NCBI RefSeq assembly: GCF_000372725.1
Contig: NW_005201792.1
Coordinates: 103,452 to 167,451, forward strand
Reading direction: 5' to 3'
Length of the DNA: 64,000 bases
From: Emiliania huxleyi CCMP1516
Taxonomy: Eukaryota
A program made the translations under genes and the position numbers. Below are positions 1,217 to 55,500 of the stretch, one piece after another (positions within the stretch are counted from its first letter, which is position 1; each line of letters opens with the position of its first letter). The notes beneath the pieces were generated by a model. That model was given only the letters and a program-made list of their open reading frames with translations. It was not told the origin of the DNA and made no database searches.

Positions 1217-3160
1217 ATGTTGAGCGTGTGTGCGCAGTGTGCGCTAATCCCTTCTGGCACGCCGGAGCGAGTGTGGGCAATCGGCGACCTGCATGGCGAC
1301 GTCGGCTGCGCCCTACATTGGGTGGAGCGCACGGGGCTGCTGCGGAATGCATCGTTGCCAGCGGCGGAGTGGGAGTGGACAGAGCCGTCGAGCCAGCTGG
1401 TGTTCTTGGGCGACTACATCGACCGGGGACCGGACTCGAAAGCCGTACTCACCCTGGTGCGAGAGCTAACTTTGCGCTTCCCTGAGCACGTGCATGCTCT
1501 CCTCGGAAACCACGAGCTGAACCTCCTTCTCGACCGGGCGAGGAGCCCCAGCGGCGGCCGCTACCTCGAGTACGCCTACGCCGCTGCTCACCCGGCGCAG
1601 TACGAGGCGTGGCTGCCCGAGGGTGAGCGGACAGAGGACCTTGACGGGGTGCTGCGCTCGCTCCACGATGCGCTGCTCTCCGTCTACAGACGCGGCCTGC
1701 ATGCCCAGGGCGTGCCGATGGCGCCCGACGGCCCGTCCCAAGGACCTTGCAGGAGCCTTCTGGGAGCCTTCCTACAGGCGTGCAGATGGTGCCCGACGGC
1801 CCGTCCTCGATCGTCGAGTTCGTGCGCCCCAAGGCCGCGCGCCCGCGCGTTGCAGACGCCCTCCGCCGTTGGCAGCGTGCATACATGCGCGGCGTGAGCA
1901 GCGACTCCCCCCTCGGCGAGTTCCTGCACCGGCCTCTCTCCGTCCACCTGGCAGGCGGCTTGCGCGGCGGGCGGTCGCAACGGGGATGAGCCGAGATGAG
2001 CCGAGATGAGCCGAGATAAGCCGAGAGTATAGGCACCGTGTTTGTGCACGGCGGGCTCGCAGAGGAGCTCCTCGACAGAGAGCTGCCGCACTCCCCCTCC
2101 GCCCCGGTGCGGCCGCTCGACTCGCTCGAAGCCCTCGACGAGCTCAACGCGCGCTGGCTCAACGCGACCGGGGGACACGCGCCGCCGCGGCCAGGCGAAG
2201 AGAGCTATCACTGCAATAGCTATCACTGCTACCTCGGCCACTTCGGCCACCTCTCGGCTACCTCTCGGCCACCTCTCGGCCACCTCTCGGCTACCTCTCG
2301 GCTACCGCTCGGCGGTCGCTCGGCTGCACTTGGCCGATCTGTCGGCTATCTCTTGTCTATCTCTCGGCCGCCTCTCGGCCAGGCGAGACGCGTGCGTCGG
2401 CAGAGGCCGCGGCGCTCGCGCAGTCGGACCTCGTCGCCTTCGCGTCGGAGATGGTTGAGTACCGAGGGCTGCACGGCTCGTACGCAGGCAGGTACGCCGA
2501 CCGCCACTCGCGGCGTGGTCGACGGCGCGCCGCGCCTCCGGAGCAGGTTGCGTGCAACCTCCCAAAGGCCAAGCAGCACCGAAGCTGCAGCACCGAAGCA
2601 GCAGCACCGTGCCTGACGTCCGCAGGTTGCTTGCGACCGCGTCGCGGCGGTGCTGCGCCGGCTGAACGTGTCACGCATTGCGGTCGGCCACACGCCCGAG
2701 GACAGCGTGCGGGTGCGGTGCGGCGGGAGACTGCTGGCGCTCGACTCGACGCTCTCGCGCAGGCGCAGAGGCTACATCTCGATTGCATCTCGGGCTCTAC
2801 CTCGGGCTTTTCCTCGGCTCTCCTCGGCTTTTCCTCGGGCTCTACCTTGGCTCGCCACTTCCCCCCGCTCGCAGCTTTCGGGCGCACGGCAACTACTACT
2901 GCGACGAGCAGATGGAGCGCGAGGAGTCTCCGGGTAGGAGGGGCTAGGCGCGGCGAGGCCCCGAGATCACGCGTCGAGATTGCCTGAGCGATTAGGAGCC
3001 GAGGATCTGCGCGCCGCGGCGCGAGGCGTGCGAGGGGCAGATCGTGCGCCTCGAGCGGAGGGACGCGCGGGCGGCGTGGGTGCTGCACGTCGTGGAGAGC
3101 GAGCCGGACATCGAGCGAGACGAGGGCGCCGTCGAGGACATGAAGCTGGAGCTGCGGTGA
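1217..3160 (+). CDS. Calcineurin-like metallophosphoesterase, Shewanella-like phosphatase (SLP) type; multi-exon
   Basis: PPP motifs occur in order across exons: IGDLHGD, LGDYIDRG, LLGNHE, FVHGGL, IAVGHTP. ATG at 1217; ends EDMKLELR-TGA at 3160. Confidence 0.85.
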
Positions 3161-3719
3161 CACCGGCCGGCGCGCTGAACCGCGCCATCCTCGTAGTCGT
3201 ACCTCGACCGCCGTGCAAAGCTCGCTTCCGAGCTCTCACGCCGCGCGTAGGGCCTTTACACCGGAGGCCGGGGACCGGATAAGAAAAAATATGTGCGCAA
3301 GACATAGAGATAAGAGAGAAGATGAGTCTTGTCAAGTTGTATGACAAGAAGAGGCTCTTGTGTGCACACACGACCCTCACCCGCTATGCAGCCCCTTGGA
3401 GTGTGAAGGCTTCGTAGCCCTCCGGTCTACTAGAAGATCCGCAGGACTGGAGCGAAAAAAAAGCAAGCGAGTGCCCGCTATGGGTATGGGACCGGCGAGG
3501 GCGACTCTCTATACACACTGTAATTTAACCCTTCGATCCGTGCGCGGCAGCTTCCACTGCATCGCCTCCAAACGCCTGCATTCCTGCTTCTGCTCTCCCC
3601 CGCGGGGCTCCGTCCTCGTCCCTTCTCAGCTCTCTACATGGGTTATCGGCTACGGTGTATCTCTGGCGGGCCCTGCCGGCCAGCCAGGGCGCCACAGCGG
3701 ACGCCCGTCTTCGGCGCGC

Positions 3720-6207
3720 CTAGGACTCGATGCCGGTGAGCCCGTCCTCGGGCGCGGGGAAGTCGTCGGGCATGATAGTCATCAGCTCGTCCTCCGACAC
3801 CTGCTCACACGGGCAGCTGCTGAAGAGACGCCGCTCACAGCCACGGCGGTCGTCGCTCGTCCTCCGATACCATCCCGTTGGACGAGGGAGACATCTTCTC
3901 CTCGAAGACGCGGATGGCGGAGCCCATGCGCGCGAGGTCGATCGCGTTGCGCACCTGCGCACGCGCGGAGGGCGGGGCTTGAGTGGCGTGTGCGCTGCGT
4001 GTGACGACAGCCCCCAAACTACGGACGCATCACGCGACCTTCAGCAATGCTGCGACGGAGGACATGGTCCTTGGTCCGTGGGCTGCGCATCTTGGGTGCG
4101 CACCGTGCGCGCGTTGGCAAAGAAGGGCATGCGCTTGCGCTTGGAGAGGTAGTCCTTGAGCGCCGGCTCCGCGCCTGCACGAGAAGGGTCCGAGAAGGGT
4201 CCGGGAAGGGTCCGAGAGGAGGCTGCTGCTCGAGCTGCTCCGCGCCAGGGCCGAGCTTGTATTCGAGCTCGCGGCACATCACCTGCTCGCCGAGATTAGC
4301 CGAGATCAACCGAGGTTGTCCGAGGTTGTTGATCGCCGAAAGAGTGCTCGAGCTCTCGCGGCTCATCACCCGCCGTCCGAGAGGAGCCGAGAGGAGCCGA
4401 GAGGAGCCGAGAGGAGCCGAGAGGAGCCGAGAGGAGCCGAGAGGAGCCGAGAGGAGCCGAGACGAGAGCCGAGAGGAGCTGAGCTTGTTCTCGGCGGCGC
4501 AGCACCTTTCCAATCTCGACGAGCTCCTCGTCCTCGTAGTCTGGGAACTCGATGTGGTTGCCGATGCGCGAGGCCATGCCGGGGATGAAGCCGTAAAAGG
4601 CGTCCATCTTGTCCTTGTACCCGGCGAGCACGACGATGATGTCCTCCTTGTTGTTCTCCATCACGTTGAGCAAAATCTCGACCGACTCTTGCCTATGTTT
4701 AATTATGAATTAATTATTCATAATTAATTTAAATGCCAGATCTCGACCGACTCTTGCCCGTAGTCGCGGTCGTTTGCGGCGTTGTACAGGTAGTACGCCT
4801 CGTCGACGAGCAGAATGCCTAGAGCGTGAGCAAACCGCAGTCAGCTTTCGGAGCATCTCGTGAATGCATACGAATACAGTGAGCCAATACAGCGGAGTGC
4901 GTGTCCTCTCGAGCGCCAGTCGGCAGACAAGACTACGTCTTCCCCAGCTAGGGAGCAGCATGCCGCCCATCGCCTTTTTGACCATCTCCTTGGTCTTTGG
5001 CGCCTACGCGACATGTCTCGGACGTGTCGTGGACGTGTCCTCGACCTCCCGACCGCCTGCCCGGCCTCGGGCGCCGTGTGGCCCACGTACTGCCCCACCA
5101 GGTCGTCGCGCGTCGCGACGACCACGTGCCCCGTGCGGCAGTAGCCCATCCGCTGCAGGATCTGGCCCATGCGCAGCGCGACCGTCGTCTTGCCGGTGCC
5201 GGGCGCGCCTGCAGGAAGGGTCCGAGAGGCTTGCGCGAAGGGTCCGAGAAGGGTGCGAGGTCTCTCCCTGCCGCGCCGGTGAAGCCCATGTGCAGCGACG
5301 GGACCGACGTCTCGAGCCCCAGCTTGAGCCGCATCTTGTCCACAACCAGCAGCGACGCGATCTCGCGCACGCGCTGCTTGACCGGCTTCAGGCCGATCAG
5401 GTCGTAGTCGAGCTTCTCGAGGATGTCCTTGACGCCCTCCTTGTACATGAAGTCGTCGACGGTGCCCGCCGCGACGTCGTCGGGGATCTGCCGCATCAGC
5501 GCGATCTTGCGCTCCTATGGGGCATGTCTCGGACATGTCCCGGACATGTCCCGGACGGCTGGTCGTGCCGCTTCATCAGGGCAGTCTCGCGCTCCTTCGC
5601 CTCGCGCGCCAGCTGCGCCGCGTTCTCGCGCGCAAAGATCTCCTCCTCCTCGAGCCTCCTCTCGACGTCCGCCTACCCACCAGATCAGCCGAGATCAGAC
5701 CAGCCGAGATGAGGTCGCCTCCTCGCGCCTCCTCCCGACCTCTTTGAGCCGGTCCGATGCTCTGCGGTAGTTCTTGACGTTGCCGTCGGTCACAACCTTG
5801 TCTCCGGCGGCAGTGTGGCCTTCGAAGTTGCCGTGCGCATCTGTCTTCAGCCCGGCATCGTACTGCACAGCTGGCGGGCCGGACGGCGGCGCGGCGGCCG
5901 CCTGCTTCATCGAGAAAGCCCAGTTGTCGTCCGGGTCATCCTCAACGTCCGGCGTTGGGCCCGTGCCAAAGCGCTCCGGTGCCTTCTTGCCGTCGCGCGT
6001 GACTGTGTCAGCCCAGCCTCCTTCGTATTGTCTGATTGGTTTCCTCAAGTGTGCGAGCATGGGATTGCCGTCGTCCGAGGGCGGCGGCGGCAGCTGCATG
6101 GCGGCAGGAGCGCCGCGGCATATGCCCACGCGGCGATGTCTGGCCGCAGCACTGTGGGCCTGCGACGGCTTTAGAGCCGACGGCTGCGCCACGAGGAGCG
6201 CGAGCAT
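3720..6207 (-). CDS. cbbX: Nuclear-encoded CbbX (red-type Rubisco activase, AAA+) with N-terminal targeting extension; about 10 introns
   Basis: Spliced protein reads [35 protein letters not shown] (Walker A), [28 protein letters not shown] (Walker B), [22 protein letters not shown]. Confidence 0.95.
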
Positions 6208-6852
6208 CGCCCGGCACGACGGAGGCCTGCGGAGATGCAGCGTCAGAAGAAAAGAAAAACGTCAGTTTCCTAAGAGTTACAAAATATGAAAAAGCAGAGT
6301 CATCCTACGGGAATGTACGTTAAGAGCCACATACAACGTAAAAAAATGGAGGAGGATCGGGAGGCGGGAGAATAAATCCCCCACTCTGGCCTCCGGACCC
6401 TCCGTCCCCACAGACAGCTCGTCGGCAGCACGACCACGAGGACACGTCTCTGCTGATCCTGTGGGACCTGCTGGTGGTGCTCAACCTCTCGGAGCGGAGC
6501 GCGCGGTGTCGAGGTTGGATACGAGCTTGGTCAATGGAATCGGGCTGCAGGGGGCATCTCACCGTCGCGTGGGCGCACGTGCCACCACCTTTGCAGGATT
6601 TTGCAAAAGCGAGGGGGGAGGGCGCATCGCCGCGCGGAGAGGGCTGGGCATAGGGCACAGGGGATCTCTCTCGCATAGGATATGCACTCGGCGGCACGAG
6701 GGCAAGGCTGGGCGTCCTATGTTTGTGCTCCCCCCCGGACCCCAGGGTCAGCCATTAAGGCGACTCAGATTCTCTTTTTTGTCGCACCGCCATCAAGCTC
6801 CGCCCGACCTCGAAGCCAGCTGGCTCGAAGCCGACCTCGAAGCTCTCGTGGG

Positions 6853-9800
6853 ATGCTCCTGCTGCTCGCCGTCAGCGCGCTCCATCCTCCTCTCGCCGCC
6901 ACGGTCCAGCGGCGATGCCGTCGACGTGCGGTGTATCTCGCGGAGAGTCCCGGCGCCAAAAAATTGACGCTCATCCGGCACGGTCAGTCCGAGTGGAACC
7001 TGGCTAACCGCTTCACCGGCTGGGTGGACGTCGACCTGACCACCCGGGGCATCCAAGAGGCGCGTGAAGCGGCTCGTGCACTCAAGGCGGACGGCACAGA
7101 GTATGACCTCGTCCTCACCTCGTGTCTCCGCCGCGCCGTTCGCACCTCCTGTCTACTGCTGTCCGGCGCAGGGCGCCCTGCGGTGCCGATGGTCAAGGAC
7201 GCGCGGCTCAACGAGCAGCACGCCGGCGCGCTGACCGGGCGGAACAAGCGGTCGCTCGCCAAAGAGCACGGCCACGAGCAGGTCATGCGCTGGCGGCGCG
7301 GGTTCGCGGTGCCACCGCCGCCCATCTCGACGAAAGCTCCGCTGCAGAGCGCCATCTGCCGCGACGAGAGGTACCGGCGGCGGCCTTGCGCAGGCGGCGC
7401 CAGCGGAGGTCCGAGCCAGGACGTGGTCGTTCCTCGCGGGGAGACGTTCCGCGACTGCCTGGAGCGGGTGAGCGAGGTGTGGTCTGGGGCACGGCCGAGC
7501 ACTGCCTCGTCTACACGGCCCTACCTCGGCTGCACCTCGGATGTAGGTCTGGTCCGACACGGTGGAGCCGGCCCTCCGCGACGGCAAGAACGTGCTGGTC
7601 GTGTCTCACGGAAACGCACTGCGCGCGCTCATCAAGCTGGTCGACGGCGTCAGCGACGAGGACGCCGCCTCGACATGCCCCCCCCACGTCCACACATGCC
7701 CGTGACATGACATGCACATGCACATGCACATGCACATGCCGCATGTGCATGTGACATGTCCGAGACATGTCCACAGGACGCCTACCACCTCGACATGCCC
7801 ACCGCCTGCCCGCTCGTCTACGAGGCGCTGCCAAGCGCCGGCCCCTCGGGCGTGAGATTCGGCGACGCGCACGGCACGTGGGGCACGTCGAGCGTGCTGC
7901 GGCACGGCCGCTTCCTATACGACGAGGGGCGGGTGCAGCAGGCGCAGGAGATGATGCGCTCTCAGGTGCTTCGGGACATCGCCGTCTCGACCATCTCTTC
8001 GACCGGCACGAGCGGCATCGCGACGTGCGACGCATGGTCCCGAGGACGGGGTGGCGCCGGTGCGGCAGGCGGTGTCAGCTGTGAGTGACCAGTATGGGTG
8101 GCTGAACAGGTCCGAGGAGGGGGTCTCGTCGGTGCGCGTGTCGGTTGGTGATGGCGAGCCCTCAAGCAGTGTGCGGACGAAGATTCGGAGCTACTCATGG
8201 GAGATGACCTTGGACCACGGATTCCTCGTCAGGCGAGTCCTTCAACGTGCGCACGATGGGCAAGCCGGAGCGGCAGCCACAGGCGGGCGAGGGGGACGGG
8301 GAGGGGGGAGAGGAGGACGGGACGGAGGTGCGCATCCTGCCGCCGCCGCGGCGGAACCCGCGCTACGACGGCGTGGGAGGTGCGGCGGCGAGCTCGGCGG
8401 AGCTAGCGGCGCAGGCGAGCCTCGAGCTTGCCATGTTTGCGAAGAGCCAGCGGCAGCAGGCGGCGCAGCAGGCCGCGGCGCCGGGTGGCCGCGAGGAGGC
8501 GGCGGCGCGGCGGCAGTCACGGGCGAGCCTGATCTTGCTGCGGCACCCCCTCGCCACGTCGATGCTGCATCACGGCGTGGACGGCGTCTCTTCACAGCTC
8601 TCGCTGTCCACAGGCACGGCTACTCGGCTTGGAACGAGGAGAACCGCTTCACCGGCTGGGCCGACCCGCCGCTGACGAGCCGGGGTCGCGAGGAAGCGCG
8701 GCTCGCGGGCTCGCTGCTGCGCGAGGCAGGCGTGCGGCGCGTCGAGCGCGTGTTCTGTTCGCTGCACGAGCGAGCAATCAAGACGGCGTGGCCTCCTGCT
8801 CGGCGAGGTGGAGATCTCGGGGCGATCTCGGGTGATCTCGGGTACTCTCGCGCAGGCGTGGCTGCTGCTCGACGAGATGGAGATGCAGTGGGTGCCGCTC
8901 AGCTACACGTGGCGGCTGAACGAGAGACACTACGGTCCTCACCGGCCGCGGCGGCTGCCGAGACCGGCTCTTAGCCACTACTCGTGAGGACCACCTCTTC
9001 TCGTCAGGTGCCCTCACCGGCCGCAACAAGCGCAGCTGCTCGGAGGAGTTTGGGCTTGCGCAGGTGCAGCGGTGGCGCCGCTCTGTCAGCGAGGCGCCGC
9101 CGCCGCTCGAGGCCGAGGCGGCGGCGGCGCTCCTCGACGGGCGGTGCGAGCACGTGGCTTGCGCCCGCGCGCATTGACCATGACCCTTTGAAGTCTTTGA
9201 ACAACGAACAGGTATGAGGGCGTGCCGGCGCCCGCGTCCGAGTCGCTCCTGCAGTGCGCGGACCGGCTGCGCCCCTTTGTGCGAGGCGAGCTGGCGGAGG
9301 CGATGCGGCGGGCGGTCGACGAGTGCGGTGTCGTGGCGGCGGAGGAGGGGAGGGCGGTGGAGGTGCCGAGCTTCGTCATCTCGTCGAGCGAGAACGTGCC
9401 GCGGATTCCTCGAGAGTGCACTCGGCAACTCTCGGAGCGCACCCTCGGCCCCCCTCGGGTCGTCTCAGGTGCTGCGCGCTCTCGTGCGCGACCTCGAGGG
9501 GCTTGCAGACGAGGAGACGCCGCTCATCGACGTGCCGCTCGCCAACCATCCCGCTGGTCAACTCTGCCAAGGTGATTCGTCTTCAGTCCTGCCTCTAGGT
9601 GCCGCACGCCATCCCGCTCGTCTACTCGCTCGACGCGGACCTGCAGCCCATCCCGTCGGGGCTGGCAAAGGCGCCGCTGCGGGCTGGCTGGTACATGGCC
9701 GACCCGGACCGACTCGCCGCCTCGCAAAAGTCCATCCGCGAGGAGGCGGGCTGCCGCCGCCGGGCGCGAGAGCCGACTCCATGGCACGTCCCTCACGCGT

Positions 9801-9930
9801 CCCGACATGTCCGCAGGTGGACTGCCGGTTGGGCGAGGCGCCGTGCGACGTGCCGCCCGAGGAGTGCTTTGTGGAGAGTCTGCCTCGCCCGCCGGGGGCG
9901 CTGGAGTGGGTCTGTGAGCAGGCGCAGTGA
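6853..9930 (+). CDS. Tandem two-domain cofactor-dependent phosphoglycerate mutase (histidine phosphatase family) with signal-peptide-like N-terminus; multi-exon
   Basis: Domain 1: LIRHGQSEWNLANRFTGWVDV, RLNEQHAGALTG, VSHGNALRAL. Domain 2: LLRHGYSAWNEENRFTGWADP, RLNERHYGALTG. The linker stays in frame if two short introns near 8037-8109 and 8154-8232 are removed. Confidence 0.85.
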
Positions 9931-10104
9931 CGTCTGACGCGAGGGAAAGAATGCGCCTGCAGCTTCACTTTAGTTGCCAGTGTGGCAGTGCGCGCGCGGC
10001 CAGCGTAATGCGAGACCGGCGGCCGTTTCCATTGTGCATTGACAAAACGATATTTATTTGTGATCCACCCCCCGAAGCGCGAAGGAAGCCCGATTTCACT
10101 CCCT

Positions 10105-11113
10105 CTACCGTATCGATCCCCGCCGCGCCTCTGCCTCCTCCTGCCGCCGCCTCGACCAGTCCGCGTCGCTCTCCCGGAAGCGGCCGGAGATGAGGTGCCG
10201 CTCGCGGCGCGTCGCCTGCACCTCGTGCTCAATCGTCGAGTCGTAGATGACCAGAGAGCCGGCGGTGGGAGGCAGCTCGCGCGGCGCGGCGCTCGCGTCG
10301 TAGACGACGAGCGAGCCGCCGTCGGCGGCGCTCCAGTCGTCCGGCGTCAGGTAGAGCAGAAAGCTGATCGAGTTGCGCCGAGGCTCCGACATCGCCGGCT
10401 CCTAGAGCGGGAGCACAGGGGACGGAGCCCCGCGGTGAGTCCAAGGGCTGCGAGTACAGCGAGTACCGTCGAGCACAGCCGAACGCACATCATGTCTACC
10501 CGAGGTGACTGTTGTGTGCCCAAGCAGCACTGCCACCGCCGACGTAATCTCTGTGCAGCACAAAGGCAACGGCGCACTCTCGTCAGCACAGACGTGCAAA
10601 TCACGCAAGGGGCTCGGACACGTGGGTCTGGTTCTAGTCCGGGCACGAGGGTCTGGTACTCCGTCGTCTAGGCGCCGGCTCCTCGTCGCGGTGGCGCATG
10701 AACTTTGCGCCGGGCGGGTAGCGCATCAGGTGGAAGCCGCCACCGCCCAGCAGCGAGCGCGAGCTGTGGCGAGCCAGACCGCCGCGGAGCTCGTCGAGCT
10801 GCACGAGAAGGTTGCCAAACGGGAGCGCCGCGGCGTCGGCGAGCTGCGCGCGAAACGCTGGCTCGAGCAGATCGGTCTGTATCGAATCCAGGTCGTCGCC
10901 CGCCTGAGGTATGTCGGCGAGCACGCGCACCATGGTTTCGCGCGACTCGACGAGTTCGTCGCCTGAGAGCCAGCCTTGCTCGACGTGCGCAAACCCGTCG
11001 CGCATCGCCGCCGCGGCACGCGCAGCGAGCGAATCGATGTCCGCTCGGCGGCTCGGCGTGGCGGGGCCGGCAGTGAGGCCGAGGAGCGGAGGAATGACGT
11101 GCAGCACGCACAT
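10105..11113 (-). CDS. 2OG-Fe(II) dioxygenase (prolyl-hydroxylase/SM-20-like); one intron
   Basis: MRYPPGAKFMRHRD (HxD), SFLLYL, DGGSLVVY, GSLVIYDS, EHEV and RHLISGRFR motifs. Intron at about 10402-10681. Confidence 0.85.
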
Positions 11114-11184: not shown

Positions 11185-11900
11185 GCACACTGGCACGACA
11201 AGGGCCCGGACTGGCGCGGACTGGAGACACACCGGCTCACAAAGAAAGAAAGAGGACGTACCGCCGCCACCACCCTTGGGTTGTCCCATCCCTCCCTTGG
11301 GTTGTCTGTTTTCTTTCTTTCTTTTTTGGGTTGTCTGTTTTCTTTCTTTCTTTCTTTCACACAGGGATTTTAATTAAGGAGAGGGGTCACGACGACTCTC
11401 GAAAAAGAAAGAAAACAGACAAACCCAGACGAGGGATGGGGGAGGAGGACAGGGTCCCCACCTGCACGAGCAGGATTTTGGAAGGACGATCAGGGGGACA
11501 GGTGGGGCTCTCCTGCTCCTGACAAGGGACGACTCTCGAGCGGATTGGAGGTGATAGCCGAACTTTCTTTTTTGATTTTTTTCGTGATTCTTGTTGGTTC
11601 TCGAGGTGGACATCCTTTGGCCGCGTTGGGTAGCGAGGATTGGGAGAGAGAGAGATTTTTAGCAATACCATTGTTTTGTAGGATTGGTGTGACGCGATCC
11701 ACGCAGGCGTGTTTTCTGGCGGCCGACCGTCAGTGCACGGAGTTGCCCCTTGCTTCGGTTTGCCTGTTAGTGCTAGCACGCGCCAGTCCGCACCTGTGTG
11801 TCGAGCCTGTCTGCTGGAGAGAGAGTTGTTTTCGGTTAAATGTTCTTTTCTGTGGTGTTTTGTGTTAGTGCCAGTGCGCGCCAGTCCTGTGCCCAGTGTC
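11185..11900. repeat. Dispersed fold-back-like repeat family member (non-coding)
   Basis: Internal inverted repeat (11285-11320 vs 11403-11440). Imperfect outer inverted motifs at 11187-11224 and 11871-11899. Segments recur at 27218-27243, 50130-50215, 50792-50830, 51555-51595 and, reverse-complemented, at 56600-56730. Confidence 0.7.
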
Positions 11901-12490: not shown

Positions 12491-14197
12491 TCAATCACAC
12501 CGTTCACTCAGCGCAAAAGCGACACGCCACTGGTCCCTGCGAACGCCGGCGTACATGCGCTGCGCGCAAGGGGCGGGCGCGCCGCCCGATCTCGTGGCTG
12601 CGCGCGCAAACGGCGCGCAGAAGACGAACTCGCGGAGCTCGCGCTCCTTCGGCCGGCTGCCAGCGGCGGCGAGCAGCGCCGGGCCGAGCGCCTACAAGAC
12701 CAAGAGCTCGTGAGGAAAGAAGGCTGTTCAGCGCGATCGCCCTGGTCTCGTAGTGCGTCAGTGCGTTGCTAAAGTTGCTGCAGTGTGCGTGCGCCTCTCC
12801 GTCTCCCCAGCGCCCTCCTGACCGCCCGGCGTCCAACTCTGCTGCAAGTCTAGCATCTCTCACTGCGCACGTCGTTCGGCCCACAGCGCCAATCGTACGG
12901 GTGTAAGTGGTATCACTGACTGACTGACTCATCTAGACCTCCCATCGCCTGCCGCACGTCCGGCTCGAGCAGCACTTCGGTCGGATCACCACCCGCTGCC
13001 TCCTCCTCCTCGCCGCCGCCGCCGCCGCCGCCGCCGGACGGCAGCGGCGGCGCGACGGACGGCTGGCCGGACGCCTAACAGAGCAAGCTGCGAGTCCAGA
13101 CGGGAAGGAAGCTGTGAGGGCGATGTGTCGGCCGGCTGCCGCGAGCAGCTGCCGCACCTGCGTCACGAGTACACGCAGAGGCGGGGTGTGAGTACGCGCG
13201 CCGTGTTTCCGAGCATCGCGCGAAGGGAATGGCTGAATGCGGCTGAATACAGCTGAACACGTGTGCCCTCGAGCTCTAGTCAGGACACACAGATCCTGCC
13301 CCGCATCTAGGCTGACGCACCAGCGAAGTCTGGCCCGGCATCCGGGCGGAGAGCGCCCCCGCCGCTGCGAGCGACGCCTCGAAATCCGCCAGGCGGGCGA
13401 CGAACGCGTCGGCAGCCGCCGCAGAGGGGGGATCGCTCGCGGCGCCGCGGCCGCCGCAAGCGGCGCGGAGGCCTTCCCAGAGCTGCGCGGCGCGCTCCTA
13501 AAAGCAGAGAGCTGTCGCTGAGAGGCCGCTGTGATCGGAGGTCCCAGAGCCGCGCGGCGCTCCTCCGCGCGCGGCTCAAGTTTGGCGGCGGCGCAGCGGG
13601 CCATCGCGTCGAGGAGGTGGGCGATCGCGCCTCAAACAGGAGAGCTGTGAATGAGGGCACACGGCGCGCTGGTTGGCCAACACGTTGGGCGCGCCTTCAG
13701 AGAAAATCTGCGAGTGCACAAGAGAGACAGCGGGGGGTGGTGCTTGGGGTGTCGGAGCGCACCCATGCAGAGCTGCGAGAGAAGCTCGGGCAGCGGGGAC
13801 GCGTCGAGCGCCTCGAGGGCGGTTGCGGCGGCGGTGAGGCGAGAGAGGCAGCGGTGAGGGTTTGCACGCACCGGTGTGTGCGTATGTGTGTGTGTGTGCG
13901 AATGCGTGTGTGCGTATGTGCGTGTGCGCACGTGCGCGTGCGCGTGTGTGCGTGTGCGTGTGCGTGTGTGGTGAGACATATGCGCCTCGAGAGCGATGTG
14001 CGCCTCGCGCGCGGCGTCAAAGAGCGGCCGCTGCTCCGCGGCGCAAAGCGCGCTCGTGCCCTCCCACAGCACCGCCCACAAGTTGCCTATCGGCGGGCCT
14101 CGAAGTTCCTAAGGGGGCTCCTAAGGGCGCCACAGCACCGCCCACGAGTTGCCTGGCGCGCGCATCCGCTCGCTCAACACGCCCCGCACATGGCAAA

Positions 14198-14237
<40 letters not shown>

Positions 14238-17200
14238 CTCCGCCGTCGCCGCTCCCTCGTCCGCGACCCAGTCGTGCGGCGACTGCCAGCGCACAAAGTC
14301 GGCGAAGGTGGACGGCGGGTTGGCGGCCTTGAAGGCCTGCATGCCGGAATTGATGACTGACATCTCGGGCAATCTCCGACAATCACTTACATCTCGGTCA
14401 ATCTCGGGCAATCTAATCTCGGCTGATCTCGCCTGCATGTCGGACTTGATGCGCCCGGCCTCGGCGGCCGCGAAGCTGGCAACCTGAGGACGAACGCCGC
14501 GAATCCGTCAGGGCGGTGACCGAGATGCTTCGGCGGTCGCCGAGCCGCCGCCTGCCCCTCGCCCCCCCGCCCCTCCTCGGGGTGCCGCGCCGGCTCAGGT
14601 GCGGCGAGCTGCGGGAAGGCCAGCTGCGTGATCGGCTCCCACAGCGGCTGACCAGACACCTCGCCGACAAGCCCAGGGAGCGGACGGAGGCAGCCCCGCC
14701 CCGCCCCGCCGCCGACACGCTTGGCCGCAGCCGCGAGGCAGCGCTCGTCCGGCTCCTACGACAAGAGAGCCCTCGACTAGAGGGAGCTGTGAGCGCAGAT
14801 CTGCCCAAGCAGCGCTGCTCCGGTGCCTCGCACTCGGCGAACTCCGCCTCCTCTCCCGCCGCCTCCGCCTCCTCTCCCGCCGCCTCCGCCTCCTCTCCCG
14901 CTGCCTCCGCCTCCTCTGCCCCCTCCCCCGCCGCCGCCGGCGGCGGCGGCGGCGACACCGAACGGGGCACACGGCGCGAGGCCGCCTGCGAGGGCACGCC
15001 AGGGACGTGTCGTGGACAAGTCTAGGGGAATTCGCTGCACACGGCGCGCGCATGCGCCTCGCGCCGCACGCACGCATTGAGGAGGTACAAGCGCTGCTGC
15101 AGGCTGCAGCCGCCCGCGGCGTCGCAAGGCAGATGGGGCAACTCGTGCAGCCGCTCCCACGCGACACGTGCCTGGCCGAGGTGCAGCCGAGGTGCAGCCG
15201 AGGTGCAGCCGAGGTGCAGCCGAGGTGCAGCCGAGGTGCGGCCGAGGTGTGGCCGAGAGTGGCCGAGAGTGGCCGAGGTGCAGCCGAAGTGCAGCCGAGG
15301 TGCGGCCGAGGTGTGGCCGAGAGTAGCCGAGAGTAGCCGAGAGTAGCCGAGAGTAGCCGAGAGTAGCCGAGAGTGGCCGAGAGTGGCCGAGATGAGCCGC
15401 TCCGTCGCCTCCTCGCGCAGAGACAGCCACAGCTGCAGCAGCACCGCCGCAGGGCTGTGTCTCCCGCCTACCCCGCCGCCGGACGCGGCCGAAGTGGCGC
15501 CGCTCGCCGAGAGGGCGACGGCGGCGATGCGGCAGAGGAGCGAGTCGCGCGCGAACGGCGCGTGTGGCAGCGGGCGCGGCTCGGCGGGGGTGTGCGGGGC
15601 GGGGGGAGAGTGCTCCGGCGGCGGGTAGGGCGGCTGGGGAGAGAGGAGGCGGCGTGTGGCGGCGGCGGCGGCGGCTTGCTGCAGCCCGCCCGGGAGCGCG
15701 GCGAGAAGGTCCACCACTCCACGCGCGCCTAAGATTCATCAACTATTCCGCCTCCACTCTTCATTCTTCTTTGTAGAAGGCCAACCACGCAGCACGCGCC
15801 TGCAGGGGCGTACCGTGGACGCGTCGCGGACATGTCGCGGACATGTCGCGTGGTCGCCGCGCCGCGCGCCGCTCTCCGCCGCCGCCGCCGCTTCGACCCA
15901 CCCCGCCAGCAGCGCCTGTCGGACGTGTCCTGGACATGTCGCAGGACGTGCCCCCGGACGTGTGCCCCTCCCACCCGGCAGCGCCTTCGCGGCAGCGGCG
16001 GCGCCCTCGCCCCCCGACGCGAGGCATGCGGCGGCGGCGTCGCGCTCGTGCGCGCTGAGCGGCATGCGGCGCAACCTCCAGCCTGCAGGCACCAGGGTTC
16101 AGGTACGGTGTGGGTGCGGTATCGAGCCTGCGGTCTCAGAGCACCGCGGGATTGCAGCGGCGCGTGATTGCAGAGTGCGCAGCAGGCAGCGACGTGAAGC
16201 CGAGTGCGCGTCTGCTCGAGAGCAAATCGGAGAGCAGATGGGGTCTGTGTTCCGCATCCAGACCCTCGAGATAGGGGGGAGATATCCGCATCTAGGGCCG
16301 CCCGCTGTGAGCGGTCTCGGACGACAGCTCGGGCAACGGCGGCGCCTGTTCACAGTTGGACGTGTGATGAGACGCCGCCTTCACGGCCTGTCTTCACAGC
16401 TCGACCGACGGCTCGGGCAGGGTCGGCGCCTCGCCCTCTTGCTCCCCGCCCTCTTGCTCCCCGGCTCTCAGCCACTCCTCCGGCGGCAGCTGCAGCGACC
16501 ACTCGCACGAGAGGGCGAGAGAGTCGAGCGGCGAACCTACCCTCGCCGAACCTCGCCCACTCTCGGCGGATGGCAGAGCGGCCTCGCCCACTCTCGCGGG
16601 TCGAGCGGCGCACCCGCGCCCGACAGCCAGTGCCGCAGCCCGCCGCCGCGCCACCCGCCTCCTACAGACTTGCTTCTCGGGCCGCAATCAACTCGCGCGG
16701 TACGGACCGGGGGGCCGCCCGCCGCCGCGCCGCCCGCCGCCGCGCTTCGGCGCCCGGTCGCTGCCCCACGCGGCGAGCGGCAGCGCCGCGCCGCCAGAGA
16801 GGGGCACCGTCGAGAGCGAGGCGACGGCGGCGGAGTCCCAGGCGTCCGCCGCGCCTGCGAGCAGGCAGCTGCGCATCATCGAGGAGGAGAAGCGGCGGAG
16901 GGGCAACTCTCCCCTCTCGTCTGCCGCGCGCGCCGCCGCGAGGCCACTCGTCGAGGACGAGCGTGCGGCGGGCGGAGACGCGCCTGTGGGGACATGTCTC
17001 GGACATGTCTCGCGCAGGTTGTGGAACTGTCCTTGGACAGGACGAGCAGGCGGCGGGCGGAGGCGCGCAGAGGTTCGCAGCCGGCGAGGAGCAGCCTGCC
17101 GCTCGCGTCGCGCGGGCCTGTCCTCGCTCCGCCCAGTACCTTGGAGGCAAACAGCCGCAGCAGCGCGCGGAAGCAGTCGTCGCCTCGGAGGCTCGCGCCG

Positions 17201-17873: not shown

Positions 17874-17934
17874 TGAGCCGTGCCGAAGGCCGTGTGCGCG
17901 GCGAGCGCGCGTCAAAAAGGAATAACGCCGCGGC

Positions 17935-18140
17935 CAGCGGAGCTGGGAAGAGGACCGCCGCAAGCGGCGTGGCGTGGAGCGGTTGTGCATCCCTCCGGGG
18001 GCCCTCTGCGCCGGGGAGGCGTTGTTGGAGGCTAGGACGCAAGCGTCCGTCGCCCTTTTCAAACTCGGGGCCCACTCCGCTACGCTCCGACCCGAATTTG
18101 GAGGGCCTAAAAGTTTAAGGTGTTGCTGCGCAAAAGGGGT
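17935..18140. repeat. About 205-bp structured dispersed repeat, copy 1 (upstream of RAB3GAP1)
   Basis: Near-identical to 63361-63577; contains the hairpins cgccgcaagcggcg and ggacgcaagcgtcc. Confidence 0.9.
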
Positions 18141-37992: not shown

Positions 37993-38092
37993 NNNNNNNN
38001 NNNNNNNNNNNNNNNNNNNNNNNNNNNNNNNNNNNNNNNNNNNNNNNNNNNNNNNNNNNNNNNNNNNNNNNNNNNNNNNNNNNNNNNNNNNN
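37993..38092. other. Assembly gap (100 N)
   Basis: Run of n characters. Confidence 1.
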
Positions 38093-43774: not shown

Positions 43775-44148
43775 CTAGCCCTTCTTCATCTGCTTGCCGG
43801 CGCGGATGACCTCGTCGACGAGCAGCAGCTGCGCCGCAATGACGGCGGCCGAGTCCAGCATCTGCCGCTTGACGCGGAAGTTGTCCCACAGCCCGGCGGC
43901 GCACGGGTCGAGCGGCTCGCCTGTCTCCACGTCGAGGCCCACCTGGCCGGAGGGAGGCGTGCGGCGACACGTCACGCGCAGGCACTCGCTGGCAGGCACT
44001 CACTGGCACGCGGCGGTCGCTGGCATGTCTCGTTCAGTGTGGGCGCGCCGGTGCGGCGGGGTTGCCAGAGGCGGCAGGCGGCGGGCGCGGCGGGCGCGCG
44101 ACGGCGGGACCGCGGGGCGTGGGAGGCAAGGGAGGCAGGGGAGGGAAG

Positions 44149-44196
<48 letters not shown>

Positions 44197-47052
44197 CCGC
44201 GCCTTTGGCGAGCCCGCCTCCTGCTCCTCCTGCAGCTTGAGGAGCGCGTCCTGCGCGTCGTAGCCGGCGTTGTCCGCGAGCGTCTTCGGGATGACGAGCA
44301 GCGCGTCGGCGAAGGTCTGCACGCCGAGCTTTGCGCGGCCCTGCACCTTCTTGCGGTACTCCATCAGGTGCGCGTGGCAGAGCACCTCGATGCCGCCCGC
44401 GCCCGGCAGCAGCTGGCCGTCGGTGACGGCGTTGGACACGGCGCGCAGCCCGTCGCGGACCGCCTCCTGCGGGGGGCGTGTCGTGGACGTGTCGTGGACG
44501 TGTCGTGGACGTGTCGTGGACGTGTCGTGGACGTGTCGTGGACGTGTCGTGGACGTGTCGTGGACGTGTCGTGGACGTGTCGTGGACGTGTCGTGGACGT
44601 GTCGTGGACGTGTCGTGGACGCGTCCCCGGCGGCGGGTGGCGGGGCCGAGGGGCCGCTCTCCTTGATCTGCGAGATGACGTGCGGGTGCGCGCCCTTGAT
44701 GAGGATGGTGCACCTGCCGTGTCGCGGGCGTGGCGTGGGCGCGGTCGCGTGCAAGGGGCCGGCCGGGGTCGGGTGGGCGGTGGCGCACGAGAAGGGGTTC
44801 GAGACGCCCTCGAGGAAAGTGTACGTCTCCTCGCCCAGCGTCTGCTCCGACACCTCCTCCGCGTACCCGAGCACCTGCACGCGGCGGGGCGGGGCTCGCC
44901 GCATGCCCCGGCCCACGCTGCACACACGGCCCCTGCCGTGCCGCTCATATTGACGGAGGGGTCTGGAGGGGTCTGGAGGGGTCTAGGGGGCGCCCAGGAG
45001 GTGTAAAGGAGGCGTGCAGGAGGTGTGCAGGAGGTGTGCAGGAGGTGTGTAGGAGGTGTGCAGGAGGTGTGCAGGAGGTGTGTAGGAGGTGTGCAGGAGG
45101 TGTGCAGGAGGTGTGCAGGAGGTGTGCAGGAGGTGTGCAGGAGGTGTGTAGGAGGTGTGCAGGAGGTGTGTAGGAGGTGTGTATGGAGCGTCGCCTCGGG
45201 CGTCATGTCGTCGATCGAGTTGACCTGCTCGCCGCCGCACGCGAGGGTGATGCGCTCCATGTTGCGCCTGCGCGGGGGGCGGGGGGCGGGTGGGTGCGGG
45301 TGGGGTGGAGCGGGTGAGTGGGGGGGTGCGGCGCGGGTGTGTGATGGTGTGTGGTGTGCGGTGTGTGGTGTGGTGTGGGTGAGGTGTGTGGAGGGTGTGG
45401 GAGTGGTGTGGGCGATTGGTGATTGAGTTGCGCGGCACCGCTTTGCGCGGCGCAGCGCGAGGATGCCCTCCTTGGCAAGGAGGTCGAGGGCGAGCGGGTC
45501 GATCCCCTTCTGGTTGATGACCACCATCGTCTCGCCCTCGCCGCACGCCTTGCGCTTCAGGTCGATGATCAGCTTTGTCTTGTCGTCGACCCACTTGCGC
45601 TCCGCCTGCACCATCTTCTCGCGCTCCTGCTCACACGCGCACACACCACGCAACGCTCAAAGACGGGACCCCTCCCCCTCCCCCTCCCCCTCCCCCTCCC
45701 CCGCCATCCCTAGCGTCGCTCCGGTGAGCGAGAAGTAGAATCCCGACGTCGGGCTGGCGGCTGCGGGCTGGCGGCTGCGGGCTGGCGGCTGCGGGCTGGC
45801 GGCTGCGGGCTGGCGGCTGCGGGCTGGCGGCTGCGGGCTGGCGGCTGCGGGCTGGCGGCTGCGGGCGGGGGGTGAGGGGGGTGAGGCTCCTCTGCGTTGG
45901 AGTAGTAGAAGCCCGAGTTGACCTCGGAGCGCATGTACTCGAGGTCGTAGTTGATGGTGAGGACGCGCACCTAAGAGCAGCTCATTGAACGTGAGAGGTG
46001 AGACCAGAAGACAAGACAGAGTGCGCTCGAGGTGGACAAGCGCCTTGCTGAGCTGCTTTGGCATGCCGGGGTGCCTCCCGCCATGGTCGAGGACGAGGCC
46101 CTTGACGAGGCGAGAGTCGGTGCCCGCCTGCAGGAGCGAGGAGACGCGCGTCGGGAGCGGGCCGAGGAGCGGGCGGACCGGGAGGAGAGCAAGGGGAGGA
46201 GAGCAAGGGGAGGAGAGCAGCCAGGGGAGAAGGGCAGCATCCGGGGGAGGAGCGGGGGGGGGAGGGGAGCAGGCGGCCGGGCAGTGGGGTGGAGCGGCTG
46301 GCAGCCGCGAGCGGGTGGGTGCGGCGTGGGAGGGGGTGGTGGGGGGGGGGGGGTGTCGGGGCAAGGCGGGGATGTGGCGGGGCGAGGGGCGAGAGGGCAG
46401 GAGGGTGGTGCGGAGAGGGCAGGGGAGGCAAGCGGGAGTGGAGGAGGGTTGCCTTGTGCTGCATGTGCATGATCTCGACCATGTGCAGGTCGAGCGGCGT
46501 GTCCGGCTTGCGGATCGTCAGCACCGCGTCCACGCAGATGGCGGTAAACATGTCCGCCAGCTCGCGGTGCATCTTAGTGCGGAGCGAGCACTGCGCAATC
46601 TGGAGGAGCAGGTCGCGGTCGGCGCAGTCCTTGGCGAGCGCGGTCCGGTCGATGTACTCGAGCAGCGACGTCTTCGCCAGCTCGATCCCCTCGCACAGCA
46701 GTCGCGGGTGCACCCCGTCCGAGAGGTGGCGCTCTGCCTGCTTCATCATCTCGCCGACGACGAGGACGGCGGAGGTGGTGCCGTCGCCGGTGATGTCGTC
46801 CTGCGCGGTGGCGATGCGCGCAATCATGCACGCGGTCGGGTTCTGGATCTGCATCTCGTGCAGCAGCGTGTTCCCGTCCTTGGTGAGCTTGATGTCGCCC
46901 GCGCCGCCGACAAGCATCTTGAGCGTGCCCTTGGGACCGAGGTTGCTCTTGAGCACGTCCTGCAGGCCGCGGGCCGCGTTGATGTTCATCAGCGACGCCT
47001 GGCCCGACTTGAGCACATCGGCGTTCGGGTTGAGCTGCTGGGTGGCCGCCAT
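43775..47052 (-). CDS. CCT6: T-complex protein 1 subunit zeta (chaperonin CCT6); multi-exon
   Basis: [70 protein letters not shown]. Confidence 0.97.
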
Positions 47053-48504: not shown

Positions 48505-48637
48505 TGGGCCCGCGTGTGGCGTCATGGGGAGTAGATATGCCTTTTGAGAAGCGGGACCACAGCCAGACCACAGCATCCTGCTAGCGCGCCCACCCCCCAC
48601 GCGCAGGAACCCGAACCCTGGGTAGAAGCGCGGGTTC

Positions 48638-52216: not shown

Positions 52217-52578
52217 GTGCACTTTGTCTTTGCCTGCTCCCCCCACAGAACGGTAAAACAAGAGGACGCGTGCAGCTGGCTCGGGGTGCACGTGTGCGAG
52301 TTGTATTATAATACGTTTCACGCGCAGAGCCGTTTTTCACGCGCCTCCTCTGCTGGCGGGTGCCGGGTGCTGGCGCCTGCTGTGGTGTGCATGCGGCGTG
52401 CGCACCATATGCTACGGGTCCCAAGTATGGGTTCGGGACGTATTCACACCAGTGTGGAATGGTAGGCCATATGGGCGTGCGCAACCGTCATGGCAACCGT
52501 TCGCACCCCGGGCCGCAAGAGAGGAGATGCCTCGCTGGAACGGCCCCACGCTGGCCCCCGGGCTGCTGCTGAGTCGCG

Positions 52579-55500
52579 TCAGGCCTGCTTGTACTGCAGC
52601 ACCATCTCGTCGGCCGACTTCCATACAAAAGCGCGCACCGCGCCGAGGGACATGTCGGGCGCGAGCGGCTTGCCGCTGGCAAAGAGGGCGAGCGGCTTGC
52701 CCGACGGGACGCGCTCCTCGACGTACGCGATGACCTTGTCGAGGCGGAGAGCGGTCGCGGCGGCGAGCTTGTTGCAGTCGGGCGGCAGCAGCGGCAGGCC
52801 CGAGGCGGGGTGCGGCTGCAGGAAGAAGGAGAGCTTGAGCGGTGCCCTCGGAGAGAACTGCGCGTGCAGCACGGCCTGCCCCACCCACGACGGTACCGCG
52901 CCGTCGGGCAAGTCGCCGAGACGGGACGCCCTGCTGCGCGCCGTCACCACGCTGCCGTCGCATATCAACACCGGCGTCTGCTCCAGCGAGCGGAACGCGC
53001 ACTGGCCGCCGCCGCCGTCGCTCCCCGCGCCGCCAGAGTTAGCGCCGCCAGCGCCGCCGCCCCCGGCGCCGCTGCCTCCCGCGCCTGCAAGAGAGGGGAG
53101 GCCGACTCCGGCGCGTGTGCGACGGCCTTTGCTGGCGGGCAGGTGGCGTGGCGGTGCGGGGGCGGTGCGGGGGCTGCGCTGGCGCGCCGTTGGCAGCGGC
53201 ACGGGAGGGCTTTTGGCGCTCGCGCCAGCTGGCAAAGAGGGCGCACAAGAGCTGCTCGCCGAGGTTGACCCGAAAGTCCTCCTGTCGGCAGGCGAGGCCC
53301 GAGCTGACCGGAGATGGCGGCGGAGGCCACTTGGGTGCCGCTTGGGTGCCACTTGGGTGGTGGCCTCTCGGCGGTCTCTCGGCGTCATCTCTGGGACCTG
53401 TCCGGCGATGCCGAGCTCAGAGGCGTATCCTACGGCCGTGGGGCACGCGTGAGGCATGCGGAGAGGGGAAGGGGGGGAAGCGGCGAGAGGAGAAGCTGCC
53501 CTCGGCGTTGAAGGTGCTGCTCGCGCACAGCGTGAGCTCGAGCGCGCCCGAGCGAGCCGATGCGGTGAACCACGAGGCGCTGTACGTGCCTGGCGGGGAG
53601 GAGGGGAAGCACAGAACACCCGCCCGGTGAGACACGCGGCGTTGCATGTCCGACTAGTCGATCTCTGTCTGTCTGCCCGTCCCCTCGACTGTCCGTGCTC
53701 TAGCCCTCTCGGGCGGCGGCGCACGTTGCGCCGTCGGCTCGGCCAGCTCGGCGAGCAGCTTGTCGTACTTCTCGCCCGCGTCGAAGCGGCGCACGCAGCT
53801 GCCCCGCGGCAGCACCTTTGCAGACGCCGCAGCCCGTCACACGGCCGCACTCGCAGCCGCACCCCTCTGCAGCCGCACCCCTCTCCCCCGCTGAGAGACG
53901 ACTCGCGGAGGAGGAGAGGGCAGGGGGGAGAGGGCAGGGGGGAGAGGGCAGGGGGGAGAGGGCAGGGGGGAGAGGGCAGGGGGGAGAGGGCAGGGAGGAG
54001 AGGGCAGGGGGGAGAGGGCAGGGAGGAGAGGGCAGGGGGGAGAGGGGGAAGAGGCTGGAGAAGCGCCTCCCACAGCGCGCAGAGCCCGCGCGTGTCCTCG
54101 GTCAGGATGCGCCGCTTGCACGGCAGCACCGCCAGCCGCTTCACAGCGGCGCTGCCTCGGATCGTTGCCACCTGCAGTCGGCGAGAGGCGGCGGAGGGGT
54201 GGGTCTCGAGGCGGCGGCGGCAGATGGAGAGGGAGAGGGAGAGGGAGAGGGAGAGGGAGAGGGAGAGGGAGAGGGAGAGGGAGAGGGAGGAGCGGCAGGG
54301 AAGGGGGTGCGGGAGAGGCGGGGAGGGAGAGGGGGAGGACGAGGGAAAGGAGGAGGGCGAGGCTTCCGCTGGAGGAGAGGCGCACCCGGTGGGAGGGCGG
54401 AGCCTCGCTGCAATCTCCGCTCCCGCCTCTCTCGTGCCGCCGCGCCAGATCGCCGCCCGCCGCCGCGCCGCCCGCGCCGCCTCCCGCGCCCGCCGCCGCG
54501 CGCCAGCAGGAGAGGGACGAGTCCGAGGTTGCCACCCAGAGCAGCTCTGGCGCCCAAGCCGGGCGGTGCAGCCTCAGCGCCGGCGCGCCGACCTGGCAGA
54601 CCCCTCGCGGCGGCGGCGGCGGCGGCGGCGGCGACGCGTGCGCGGCGAAAGAGTCGTCGAGGACCAGTCCGTCGCGGCCGCCGTAGAGGACGCGGGAGCA
54701 CGACTCGTCGACGTCGATGCAGAAGACCGAGTCGCTGTGCGGCCTGGCGGGCGGGGCGGAGGGGTCGCGGGAGGAGAGGCGCCGGGGTGCGGGAGCAGCC
54801 GCCGCCGGCGTGCGTCGCCTGAGCTCGGCCTAGACACTTCCTAGACACTTCCTAGACACTTCCTAGCCGGCGTGCGTCGCCTGAGCTCGGCCTGCACGCG
54901 TCGCTGGCCGATGCTCCAGAGCTTGACCGAGCGGTCCGAGCTGCACGAGACGAGGCAGCCGCCGTCGGCAGAGATCGCGATCCCGCGCACCACGTCTGTG
55001 TGGCCCACCAGAGAGCCGACCGCCGCCGCCTGCGCGCGAGGGTCCCAGAGGCGGAGGGTCGCGTCGACGGCGCCCGTGGCGATGAGCCCGCCGTCGAGCT
55101 TCACCTACGGCGCCACCGCCCCGCTCAAGCAGCCGCCTGTGTGCGCCGGCGCGCAGCGCCCGCCCCTAACCGCCAGCGCGTAGATGGAGTCTCCGTGCGC
55201 CCGCGCGCCCTCGCTGCCGCCGATGACGACTCGCGGCGCCAGGCGCGCCACGTCCCACACGACCACGCAGCAGTCGCAGCCGGCCGAGGCGAGTGTGCCC
55301 GCGTCCGCCGCGTACCCGAGCACCTTGACAAAGTCGGTGTGCTGCCGCAGCGTGTAGCACTTTGACGGTGTCCCCGTCTCGCCCTCGGGCCGCCAGAGCT
55401 TGATCGTCCGGTCGCTCGAGGCGGAAACGACAGCAGAGGTCAGATCGCCGTCCGTCAGCAGCGCGAGGTCGTTGACCCAGTCTGTGTGCTCGTCCACGGT

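Follow-up and report, generated by a model that had tools for sequence, protein, structure and literature searches.

Introns that carry a direct-repeat scar have been described for Introner elements and for the repair of DNA breaks. Introner duplications are given as 3 to 9 bp, and one Introner mode takes the 5′ splice site from the duplication (PMC9860276, Fig. 2B). Classes 4, 5, 6, 8, and 10 of Symbiodinium and Polarella are described in this mode, with a carried 3′ site, GHNN and 8-nt duplications, and GH after the acceptor (bioRxiv 10.1101/2020.10.14.339549). Aureococcus Introners are likewise listed with the donor from the duplication, as cited in PMC9860276. For Emiliania huxleyi, Tables 5-6 of PMC9860276 count 79 initial and 653 total Introners, including two families with a mean length of 70 and the duplication entered as "?". 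Dataset sd07 of PMC12130899 lists three small families in this alga (fam24, fam11, and fam4), the first of which has 5 introns annotated as "co-opt 5′ carry 3′" and "10bp terminal direct repeats". New introns of Daphnia pulex have been attributed to the repair of staggered double-strand breaks, with repeats of 4 to 12 bp (33 among 90; PMC4202315), and direct repeats of 4 to 30 bp near intron borders have been read as insertion scars in a further survey (PMC11782384). Variable target duplications, including an RG target, are described for Replitron-1 of Chlamydomonas, which has putative members in two haptophytes (PMC10288648). Finally, the 56% GC and 4% GA donors of E. huxleyi have been ascribed to genomic GC content (PMC4028052). 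Here, we describe short introns in a 64-kb stretch of the E. huxleyi CCMP1516 genome (contig NW_005201792.1; hereafter, the window; GC content ∼66%) whose first bases repeat those at the beginning of the exon behind them; we call this copy the echo. The echo is real, common, and uneven between genes.

Exon-start copies in introns with independently placed junctions

The junctions of a reference set of 29 introns were defined from RNA contigs and homologous proteins, blind to the echo: 10 in cbbX, 11 in dPGM, and 8 in CCT6. The names cbbX and dPGM were taken from named homologues; the metallophosphoesterase and WD40 gene names used below are Pfam assignments. For cbbX, an exon of which is 100% identical to the EMIHUDRAFT_351387 protein of E. 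huxleyi CCMP1516 (P0086; 302/304 residues identical in spliced alignment), ten joints of the right length were present among the 15 of 214 joints listed for the RNA contigs from four runs. Every one of them has a G..AG placement, and homologous proteins reproduced all, with eight of nine yielding the ten introns and the ninth, a 304-amino-acid fragment, yielding eight. The spliced aligner was restricted to GT, GC, or GA donors and AG acceptors. Spliced protein alignment also placed the dPGM junctions, after 16 single-protein calls had been discarded; nine of these introns are backed by 10 to 11 of 12 proteins, 8154-8232 by 6, and 9746-9816 by 4. The CCT6 introns are backed by 6/6 proteins, and P0202 is identical at 529/529 positions. 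Spliced frames stay open up to the stop. A second echo-blind set comprised 83 ab initio introns from 12 other genes; the predictor over-calls (2 extra introns each in cbbX and dPGM at its first setting) and misplaces some donors, which makes this set prone to dilution and its echo figures a lower bound.

An anchored score, obtained by aligning the first bases of the intron, less the two donor bases, to those of the next exon, was compared with that of permuted pairs. Own pairs averaged 14.4 versus 3.7 for permuted pairs in the reference set (0/100,000 permutations) and 6.7 versus 3.9 in the ab initio set (0/50,000). Own pairs were therefore above all permutations in both echo-blind sets, in line with the excess over shuffled pairings that the original prediction implied, here established within the window. 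By gene, own versus permuted scores were 17.0 versus 3.9 for cbbX and 18.9 versus 3.5 for dPGM, and the 8 introns of CCT6 showed no echo excess (5.0 versus 4.8; p = 0.47). A strong echo, i.e., a score of at least 12, which 4.6% of wrong pairs reach, was found in 18/29 introns (8/10 in cbbX, 10/11 in dPGM, and 0/8 in CCT6), and it was more frequent in short introns (≤90 nt; 15/19) than in long ones (3/10; p = 0.017). Strong echoes occurred in 15/83 ab initio introns against 4.6 expected, with 0/6 in a gene that we take, from its translation, to be Rab-like. The original prediction had reported the echo in gene after gene. This holds for cbbX and dPGM but was too wide for CCT6 and the Rab-like gene, and the intron at the far end of its range, 55170-55105, scores 0. 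The six intron-exon pairs that it quoted are all present, with intron starts at 8786 (quoted as 8787), 9532, 8935, 8037, 2547, and 3870 (minus strand) and matching exon starts at 8856, 9599, 9008, 8110, 2626, and 3800, and two dPGM linker introns that it had derived from the echo rule (8037-8109 and 8154-8232) were recovered by protein alignment. Model-free repeat scans were less informative: arrays swamped the signal in one; another flagged 7/46 repeats, and its masking lost known cases; the third found donor/acceptor geometry in 9/18 repeats versus a 23% background, which is weak alone.

The short introns share one layout, namely, the exon-start copy, a filler of ∼35 to 55 nt, and YAG, and 19/29 introns span 65 to 80 nt. 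Copies are 7 to 33 nt long by alignment (18 to 30 nt in the six cleanest units), and most are 65 to 90% identical to the exon. The introns thus have target-site duplications that differ from locus to locus and provide a splice site. All 29 downstream exons begin with GT, GC, or GA (G-not-G), and the donor dinucleotide equals that of the exon start in 23/29 introns, as opposed to 37% of wrong pairs; each of the 4 GA donors is paired with one of the 4 exons starting with GA. Donors are GC in 13, GT in 12, and GA in 4 introns, versus 737 GC, 408 GA, and 228 GT among exonic G-not-G sites. Similarity stops within the intron, which rules out copying of the exon over the whole intron: the distal part resembled neither the downstream mRNA (p = 0.25 for all introns; 0.056 for cbbX plus dPGM) nor the upstream exon (p = 0.37 and 0.26, respectively). 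Mismatches are spread evenly over codon positions (23/130, 25/132, and 19/133), and changes from exon to intron copy lean from A/T to G/C (T>C 14 and A>G 12 versus C>T 5 and G>A 3), which fits an intron copy decaying free of protein constraint. The codon-even mismatches and frame-breaking gaps rule out duplicated alternative exons. Score tests, anatomy, and the cleanest units together bear out the earlier proposal that a duplication of the exon start at the DNA level gave the donor and an insert gave the AG.

The 3′ fillers share sequence, with 18/406 pairs scoring at least 24 versus 0.6 expected in shuffles. They are arrays of 10- to 11-bp units (e.g., GGACATGTCTC, GAAGGGTCCGA, GATCTCGGGT, and CCTAGACACTT) whose families recur across genes; by eye, the units look related to one another and occur in both orientations. 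These shared repeat families contradict the earlier statement that the introns have no common element sequence; the accompanying statement on terminal inverted repeats agrees with our data, as none was clear in the 29 introns (first versus last 35 nt scored 6 to 17, a comparison made without a shuffled control). Intron autocorrelation peaks at period 11 (0.40 versus 0.25 in exons). Called introns cover 20% of the window and hold 25/33 period-10/11 arrays, with 8/33 outside, a count that is partly circular because introns of this kind served to train the predictor. Homology between introns is confined to the last ∼40 nt, in the form of short-period repeats, and the 5′ parts are locus specific. 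In DNA run X8, filler bins reached a summed depth of 10,000 to 55,000 versus ∼130 elsewhere, which is not a copy number but does mean that many other contigs match. One filler motif was compared with viral contigs and had 0 matches.

The ancestor of nuclear cbbX is a plastid or bacterial gene without introns, and the AT-rich, distant cbbX loci at the base of our tree fit this descent. On metagenome contigs of other algae (L002, 9.4 kb, 89% identity; L018/L019, 46 and 86 kb, 83%), cbbX is without the eight core introns, and L002 is also without the two upstream ones, so that the comparison with related algae suggested by the original prediction did reveal introns absent from relatives. In our tree, whose resolution is poor (33 rows, i.e., 17 proteins and 16 of 80 loci), L002 and L018/L019 branch separately. 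Outgroup cbbX loci are likewise uninterrupted at the core intron positions; all these loci come from a scan that favors uninterrupted matches. The positions thus most simply arose on this lineage, and the absence of echo introns from related cbbX genes is consistent with gain, without being proof of it. L002 has two introns of its own, with echo scores of 0 and 2, one of them four codons from 5673-5739. Introns with GT donors lie right after the cbbX start codon in L002 (690-826) and L019 (∼5571-5681), where the cbbX of the window has none.

Four DNA runs of four studies, which differ from the window by ∼1% or less, provided no intron-less allele among the 15 of 79 joints listed, in contigs that drop rare alleles. 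The contigs listed bridge 18 introns in 1100-10500, in 1 to 4 runs each, and skip none; 54830-54891 and 40212-40274 lie outside this range, and 4693-4757 is not among the pieces listed. With echoes mostly well below the identity of these runs to the window and no intron-less allele among the listed joints, the earlier description of the system as active is not sustained, and present-day activity is unproven. Filler purity, taken as an independent clock, did not confirm the proposed age series either, as it is uncorrelated with the strength of the echo (rho = 0.16, n = 19; rho = 0.22, n = 34).

Individual introns and other features of the window

The cbbX introns, all on the minus strand and supported by RNA joints and proteins, illustrate the range of the echo. 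They include the young-looking 4693-4757 (65 nt), with a perfect 18-nt echo and an AT-rich, self-complementary filler (a hairpin by eye), and 3801-3870 (70 nt, GT donor), with a 23-nt echo (20/23; score 28). A 21-nt echo (17/21) opens 5515-5594 (80 nt), where a GA donor matches a GA exon start; 4175-4245 (71 nt, GC donor) has a 9-nt exact and then gapped echo; and 5004-5074 (71 nt) retains a decayed 24-nt echo (16/24). These three have 11-bp repeat fillers, as does 5209-5276 (68 nt), whose 5-nt exact echo is below the threshold. The echo of 5673-5739 (67 nt) is shifted 6 nt into the exon. Among the longer introns, 4819-4963 (145 nt) has an 11-nt echo (10/11), 3955-4103 (149 nt) a 7-nt echo below the threshold, and the RNA-verified 4283-4505 (223 nt) has one echo at 4505 and another at 4369, with an array of 10-bp repeats behind either of them.

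The dPGM gene (6853-9930, plus strand) encodes a tandem pair of phosphoglycerate-mutase domains (Pfam); homologues of 670 to 830 amino acids are common in haptophyte-like records. Its protein-supported introns carry echoes of 26/30 at 8786-8855 (70 nt, 10-bp repeat filler), 15/17 at 8935-9007 (73 nt), 23/28 at 8037-8109 (73 nt), 26/33 at 9532-9598 (67 nt), 17/22 at 8154-8232 (79 nt; 6/12 proteins), 21/27 at 7661-7776 (116 nt, GA donor), 19/26 at 9144-9211 (68 nt), and 21/30 at 9746-9816 (71 nt; 4/12 proteins). The echo is decayed at 7477-7546 (70 nt, 21/30; 11/12 proteins) and weak at 9396-9468 (73 nt, 19/29); 8543-8613 (71 nt) shares only 4 nt with the exon and has no echo. The eight CCT6 introns (43943-46452, minus strand; 73 to 325 nt), which match by 1 to 4 nt at most, serve as a negative set within the window. 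They are long and C-rich, with expanded arrays, and might be either old introns or overwritten echo introns.

Further cases come from ab initio models, at times combined with RNA contigs. In the metallophosphoesterase gene (plus strand), 1710-1777 (68 nt) has a 29-nt echo with 2 mismatches and an 11-bp repeat filler, and 2547-2625 (79 nt) has a 13-nt echo; both belong to a hand-chosen six-intron model that totals 597 nt, the length implied by one RNA contig. On the minus strand, 10402-10681 (280 nt, GA donor) has a 9-nt exact echo, with RNA pieces ending at 10403 and 10673. Ab initio introns are predicted at 14087-14152 (66 nt; 23-nt echo, 1 mismatch) and 16346-16429 (84 nt; ∼26- to 30-nt echo), and 16984-17068 (85 nt) has a 30-nt echo and an 11-bp repeat filler that reaches the acceptor. 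The predicted intron 14337-14432 is a mirror case: its 3′ end is a 21-nt copy of the end of the upstream exon, and its filler repeat is reversed. The compound intron 15729-15869 consists of two units back to back (70 and 71 nt), both ending in AG, with an echo opening the second. By the length of an RNA contig, 15722-17427 should hold 902 intronic nt; removal of both units agrees with this and keeps the frame open, in one hand-picked solution.

Two units, one on each strand, stand out from sequence and ab initio models. The plus-strand unit 40212-40274 (63 nt) has a 22-nt echo with 1 mismatch and near-perfect 10-bp repeats, directly behind the older acceptor of the predicted intron 40142-40211. 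In the WD40 gene (minus strand), one exon of which was placed on WDR48 residues 180-243 by comparison with solved structures, with no match among these for the exon that follows, the unit 54830-54891 combines a 26-nt duplication free of mismatches with three perfect 11-mers and TAG, and looks the youngest. Of the copied bases, 11 are exonic and the others belong to the beginning of the predicted intron that comes next, and the template was therefore unspliced genomic DNA. This unit may be either a new intron or an extension of an old one, with either copy able to serve as an 11-nt exon.

The window has several other features. A ∼225-nt dispersed repeat occurs twice (17932-18154 and 63357-63591), each copy just 5′ of a minus-strand start codon, and a 91-nt repeat (11440-11530 and 56605-56695; 98% complementary, 45 kb between copies) likely marks the ends of a dispersed element. 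Intergenic 3202-3460 and 6266-6743, which have a very high summed depth in the DNA runs, are high-copy repeats at gene ends; DNA runs X8 and X12 show length differences near 3332-3523. A tRNA-Lys(TTT) gene lies at 19142-19216 (plus strand). The kinesin gene at 57757-59841 (plus strand; 695 amino acids; Pfam) is without introns in intron-dense surroundings. Two long, apparently intronless reading frames of lower GC content with repeat-like flanks, at ∼27950-29100 (plus strand) and 30250-32990 (minus strand), are possible horizontal acquisitions; the latter presumably encodes, by eye, a thiamine-diphosphate enzyme of the acetolactate-synthase kind. An assembly gap of 100 N (37993-38092) interrupts a long gene, making gene models that span it unsafe.

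Origin of the copies

We consider it probable that the echo is the target-site duplication scar of a short, repeat-built insert that entered at a staggered cut and became an intron. The process would start with a cut leaving a long overhang of variable length, whose fill-in would produce the duplication that we observed. An insert of 35 to 55 nt, often with 3 to 4 units of a 10- to 11-bp repeat found in the introns of other genes, would come to lie between the copies; copying between loci may underlie the shared sequence. Where a target starting with GT, GC, or GA met an insert ending in YAG, the spliceosome would excise copy and insert and restore the mRNA exactly, as the RNA contigs bear out for the splicing of cbbX, and other exon insertions would have been purged. 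The intron copy would then decay neutrally with AT-to-GC drift, arrays would expand, and the event would sometimes recur at the same junction; the patterns themselves are seen in the window, probably laid down in this order. The donor would derive from the duplicated target and the AG usually from the insert, which most likely behaves as an enzyme-moved, non-autonomous Introner-like element, with most events old and fixed and a few that look recent. The mirror form at 14337-14432 agrees with an insert lying between two duplicate copies. A more far-reaching version, which we entertain only tentatively, is a lineage-own intron writer that makes 20- to 30-nt staggered cuts filled by a reiterated 10- to 11-nt template in a retroelement- or telomerase-like manner; it would have built most ∼70-nt introns of the genome, return to junctions to stack introns there, still be running, and cause the majority-GC and GA donors of E. 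huxleyi.

Several observations weigh against the insertion scar as a general account. All counts come from one 64-kb window, and CCT6 and the Rab-like gene have no echo. Three echo units lie at or within existing introns, which makes some echoes remodeling rather than birth. Several fillers, such as the AT-rich one of 4693-4757, are unique, and no single element accounts for them; inverted ends were not seen in the 29 introns, and neither a transposase nor a reverse transcriptase was identified. The G-not-G rule is broken at the ab initio intron 2763-2874, where the next exon starts with CT. Echo score and filler purity are uncorrelated, so this second clock lends no support to an age series. 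The case for gain comes solely from distant relatives, whose genes may be paralogous or have lost introns, and no conspecific-like run has an empty site among the joints listed.

Host repair of staggered double-strand breaks, with filler captured or synthesized from abundant sequence and no mobile element, is the Daphnia type of explanation and the one that the original prediction had adopted; the filler families would then stem from minisatellites that spread afterward or from selection in favor of 3′ splice signals. The variable duplication length, the unique fillers, and the nested and side-by-side events do resemble the categories described for Daphnia, and the lack of inverted ends and the AT-rich hairpin filler of 4693-4757 point the same way. 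We nevertheless find this account doubtful, as the Daphnia repeats are given as 4 to 12 bp versus 18 to 30 nt in our cleanest cases, the youngest-looking unit, 54830-54891, has a perfect repeat array in a birth-like state, and introns of unlinked genes carry the same filler families next to the acceptor. It is rather improbable that the echo records a rewriting of existing introns, with duplication plus filler aimed at, or tolerated only at, old junctions, where it would replace or lengthen the older intron, so that the positions would not have to be new. The stacked units in 4283-4505, 15729-15869, and 40142-40274, the position of 54830-54891 next to an intron, and several long introns near multiples of 70 nt (145 and 149 nt) would suit this explanation, but L002 and L018/L019 have no introns at the cbbX core positions and the outgroup loci are uninterrupted.

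The same relatives speak against abortive copying from spliced mRNA or cDNA, in which a 10- to 30-nt extension across the junction is rejoined to the 3′ part of the old intron. In most cases the copy begins at the junction, as this would predict, yet that of 54830-54891 enters the next predicted (ab initio) intron and not the next exon, and we regard such copying as very unlikely. Plain tandem duplication of an AG-GY exon segment, the middle of which becomes the intron, would place an echo at the 5′ end and has one mirror case, 14337-14432, in its favor. However, it also calls for intron 3′ ends that copy the end of the upstream exon, and these were unlike, scoring 0.6 versus 1.5 for permuted pairs in the 29 introns, i.e., below the control, and 3.1 versus 2.6 in the 83 ab initio introns (p = 0.08); moreover, the upstream exon ends in AG in 11/29 cases only. 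With the mirror case as sole exception, tandem duplication is largely refuted and scarcely credible as a general source. High GC content (∼66%) and the splice consensus, or an assembly artifact, might be invoked for a chance origin, and CCT6 shows no echo; permutations that keep composition and consensus, RNA contigs that splice the introns, and four DNA runs that carry them refute this for cbbX and dPGM and leave it a practically negligible probability.

Comparison with described intron-generating systems

The insertion-scar reading would have consequences beyond this locus. The echo provides a testable cause for GC and GA donors, which would be exon sequence that was borrowed and then filtered by splicing. 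With a locus-specific scar in most short introns of some genes, intron gains in an important bloom-forming alga could be detected and put in order even where no element is shared. The echo also resembles coding sequence and draws gene predictors beyond the true donor, and it can be used to correct annotations.

Among the described systems, Replitron-1 is, in the account given in PMC10288648, a transposon of the kilobase class that has a Rep enzyme and whose terminal repeats are fixed, and it is not reported there to make introns; its likeness to the present inserts is one of description only. The survey in PMC11782384 covered 213 mixed introns and accepted a repeat wherever it lay up to 40 bp from one border or the other, whereas the copy reported here is anchored at base 1 of both intron and exon and is permutation controlled. 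The Daphnia inserts are described as AT-rich and population-polymorphic, with 4- to 12-bp repeats (PMC4202315); our introns also have a direct repeat between exon and intron, but the copies are longer, strongly 5′-sided, and fixed in the runs checked, with GC-rich shared repeat fillers, the inserts falling partly into families and partly being unique. The surveyed E. huxleyi families share with these introns the species and the ∼70-nt length, and fam24 the donor mode, but are tiny and listed with a duplication of "?" or 2 nt; they were set against our introns by description only.

The closest match is with donor-borrowing Introners as presented in the cited sources: both have the same geometry, GT/GC/GA donors, a G-not-G exon start, a narrow length, and exact restoration of the mRNA. 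The original prediction had set these introns apart from Introners, but a donor from the duplication and an acceptor from the element are a published Introner mode, one small E. huxleyi family included. In the literature searched, we did not find long exon-start copies described in most short introns of E. huxleyi, nor duplications of such length and variability, their prevalence, a filler of minisatellite type, or the stacking at one junction. Introner duplications are listed as 3 to 9 bp and fixed per family, whereas those in the window are variable, at ∼10 to 33 nt (7 to 33 nt over all alignments). Introner families are presented as homologous over their full length, often with inverted ends, whereas introns of unlinked genes here share only the repeat-array filler at the 3′ end. 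The system thus works like a donor-borrowing Introner and departs from it in two features, full-length homology and a short, fixed duplication.

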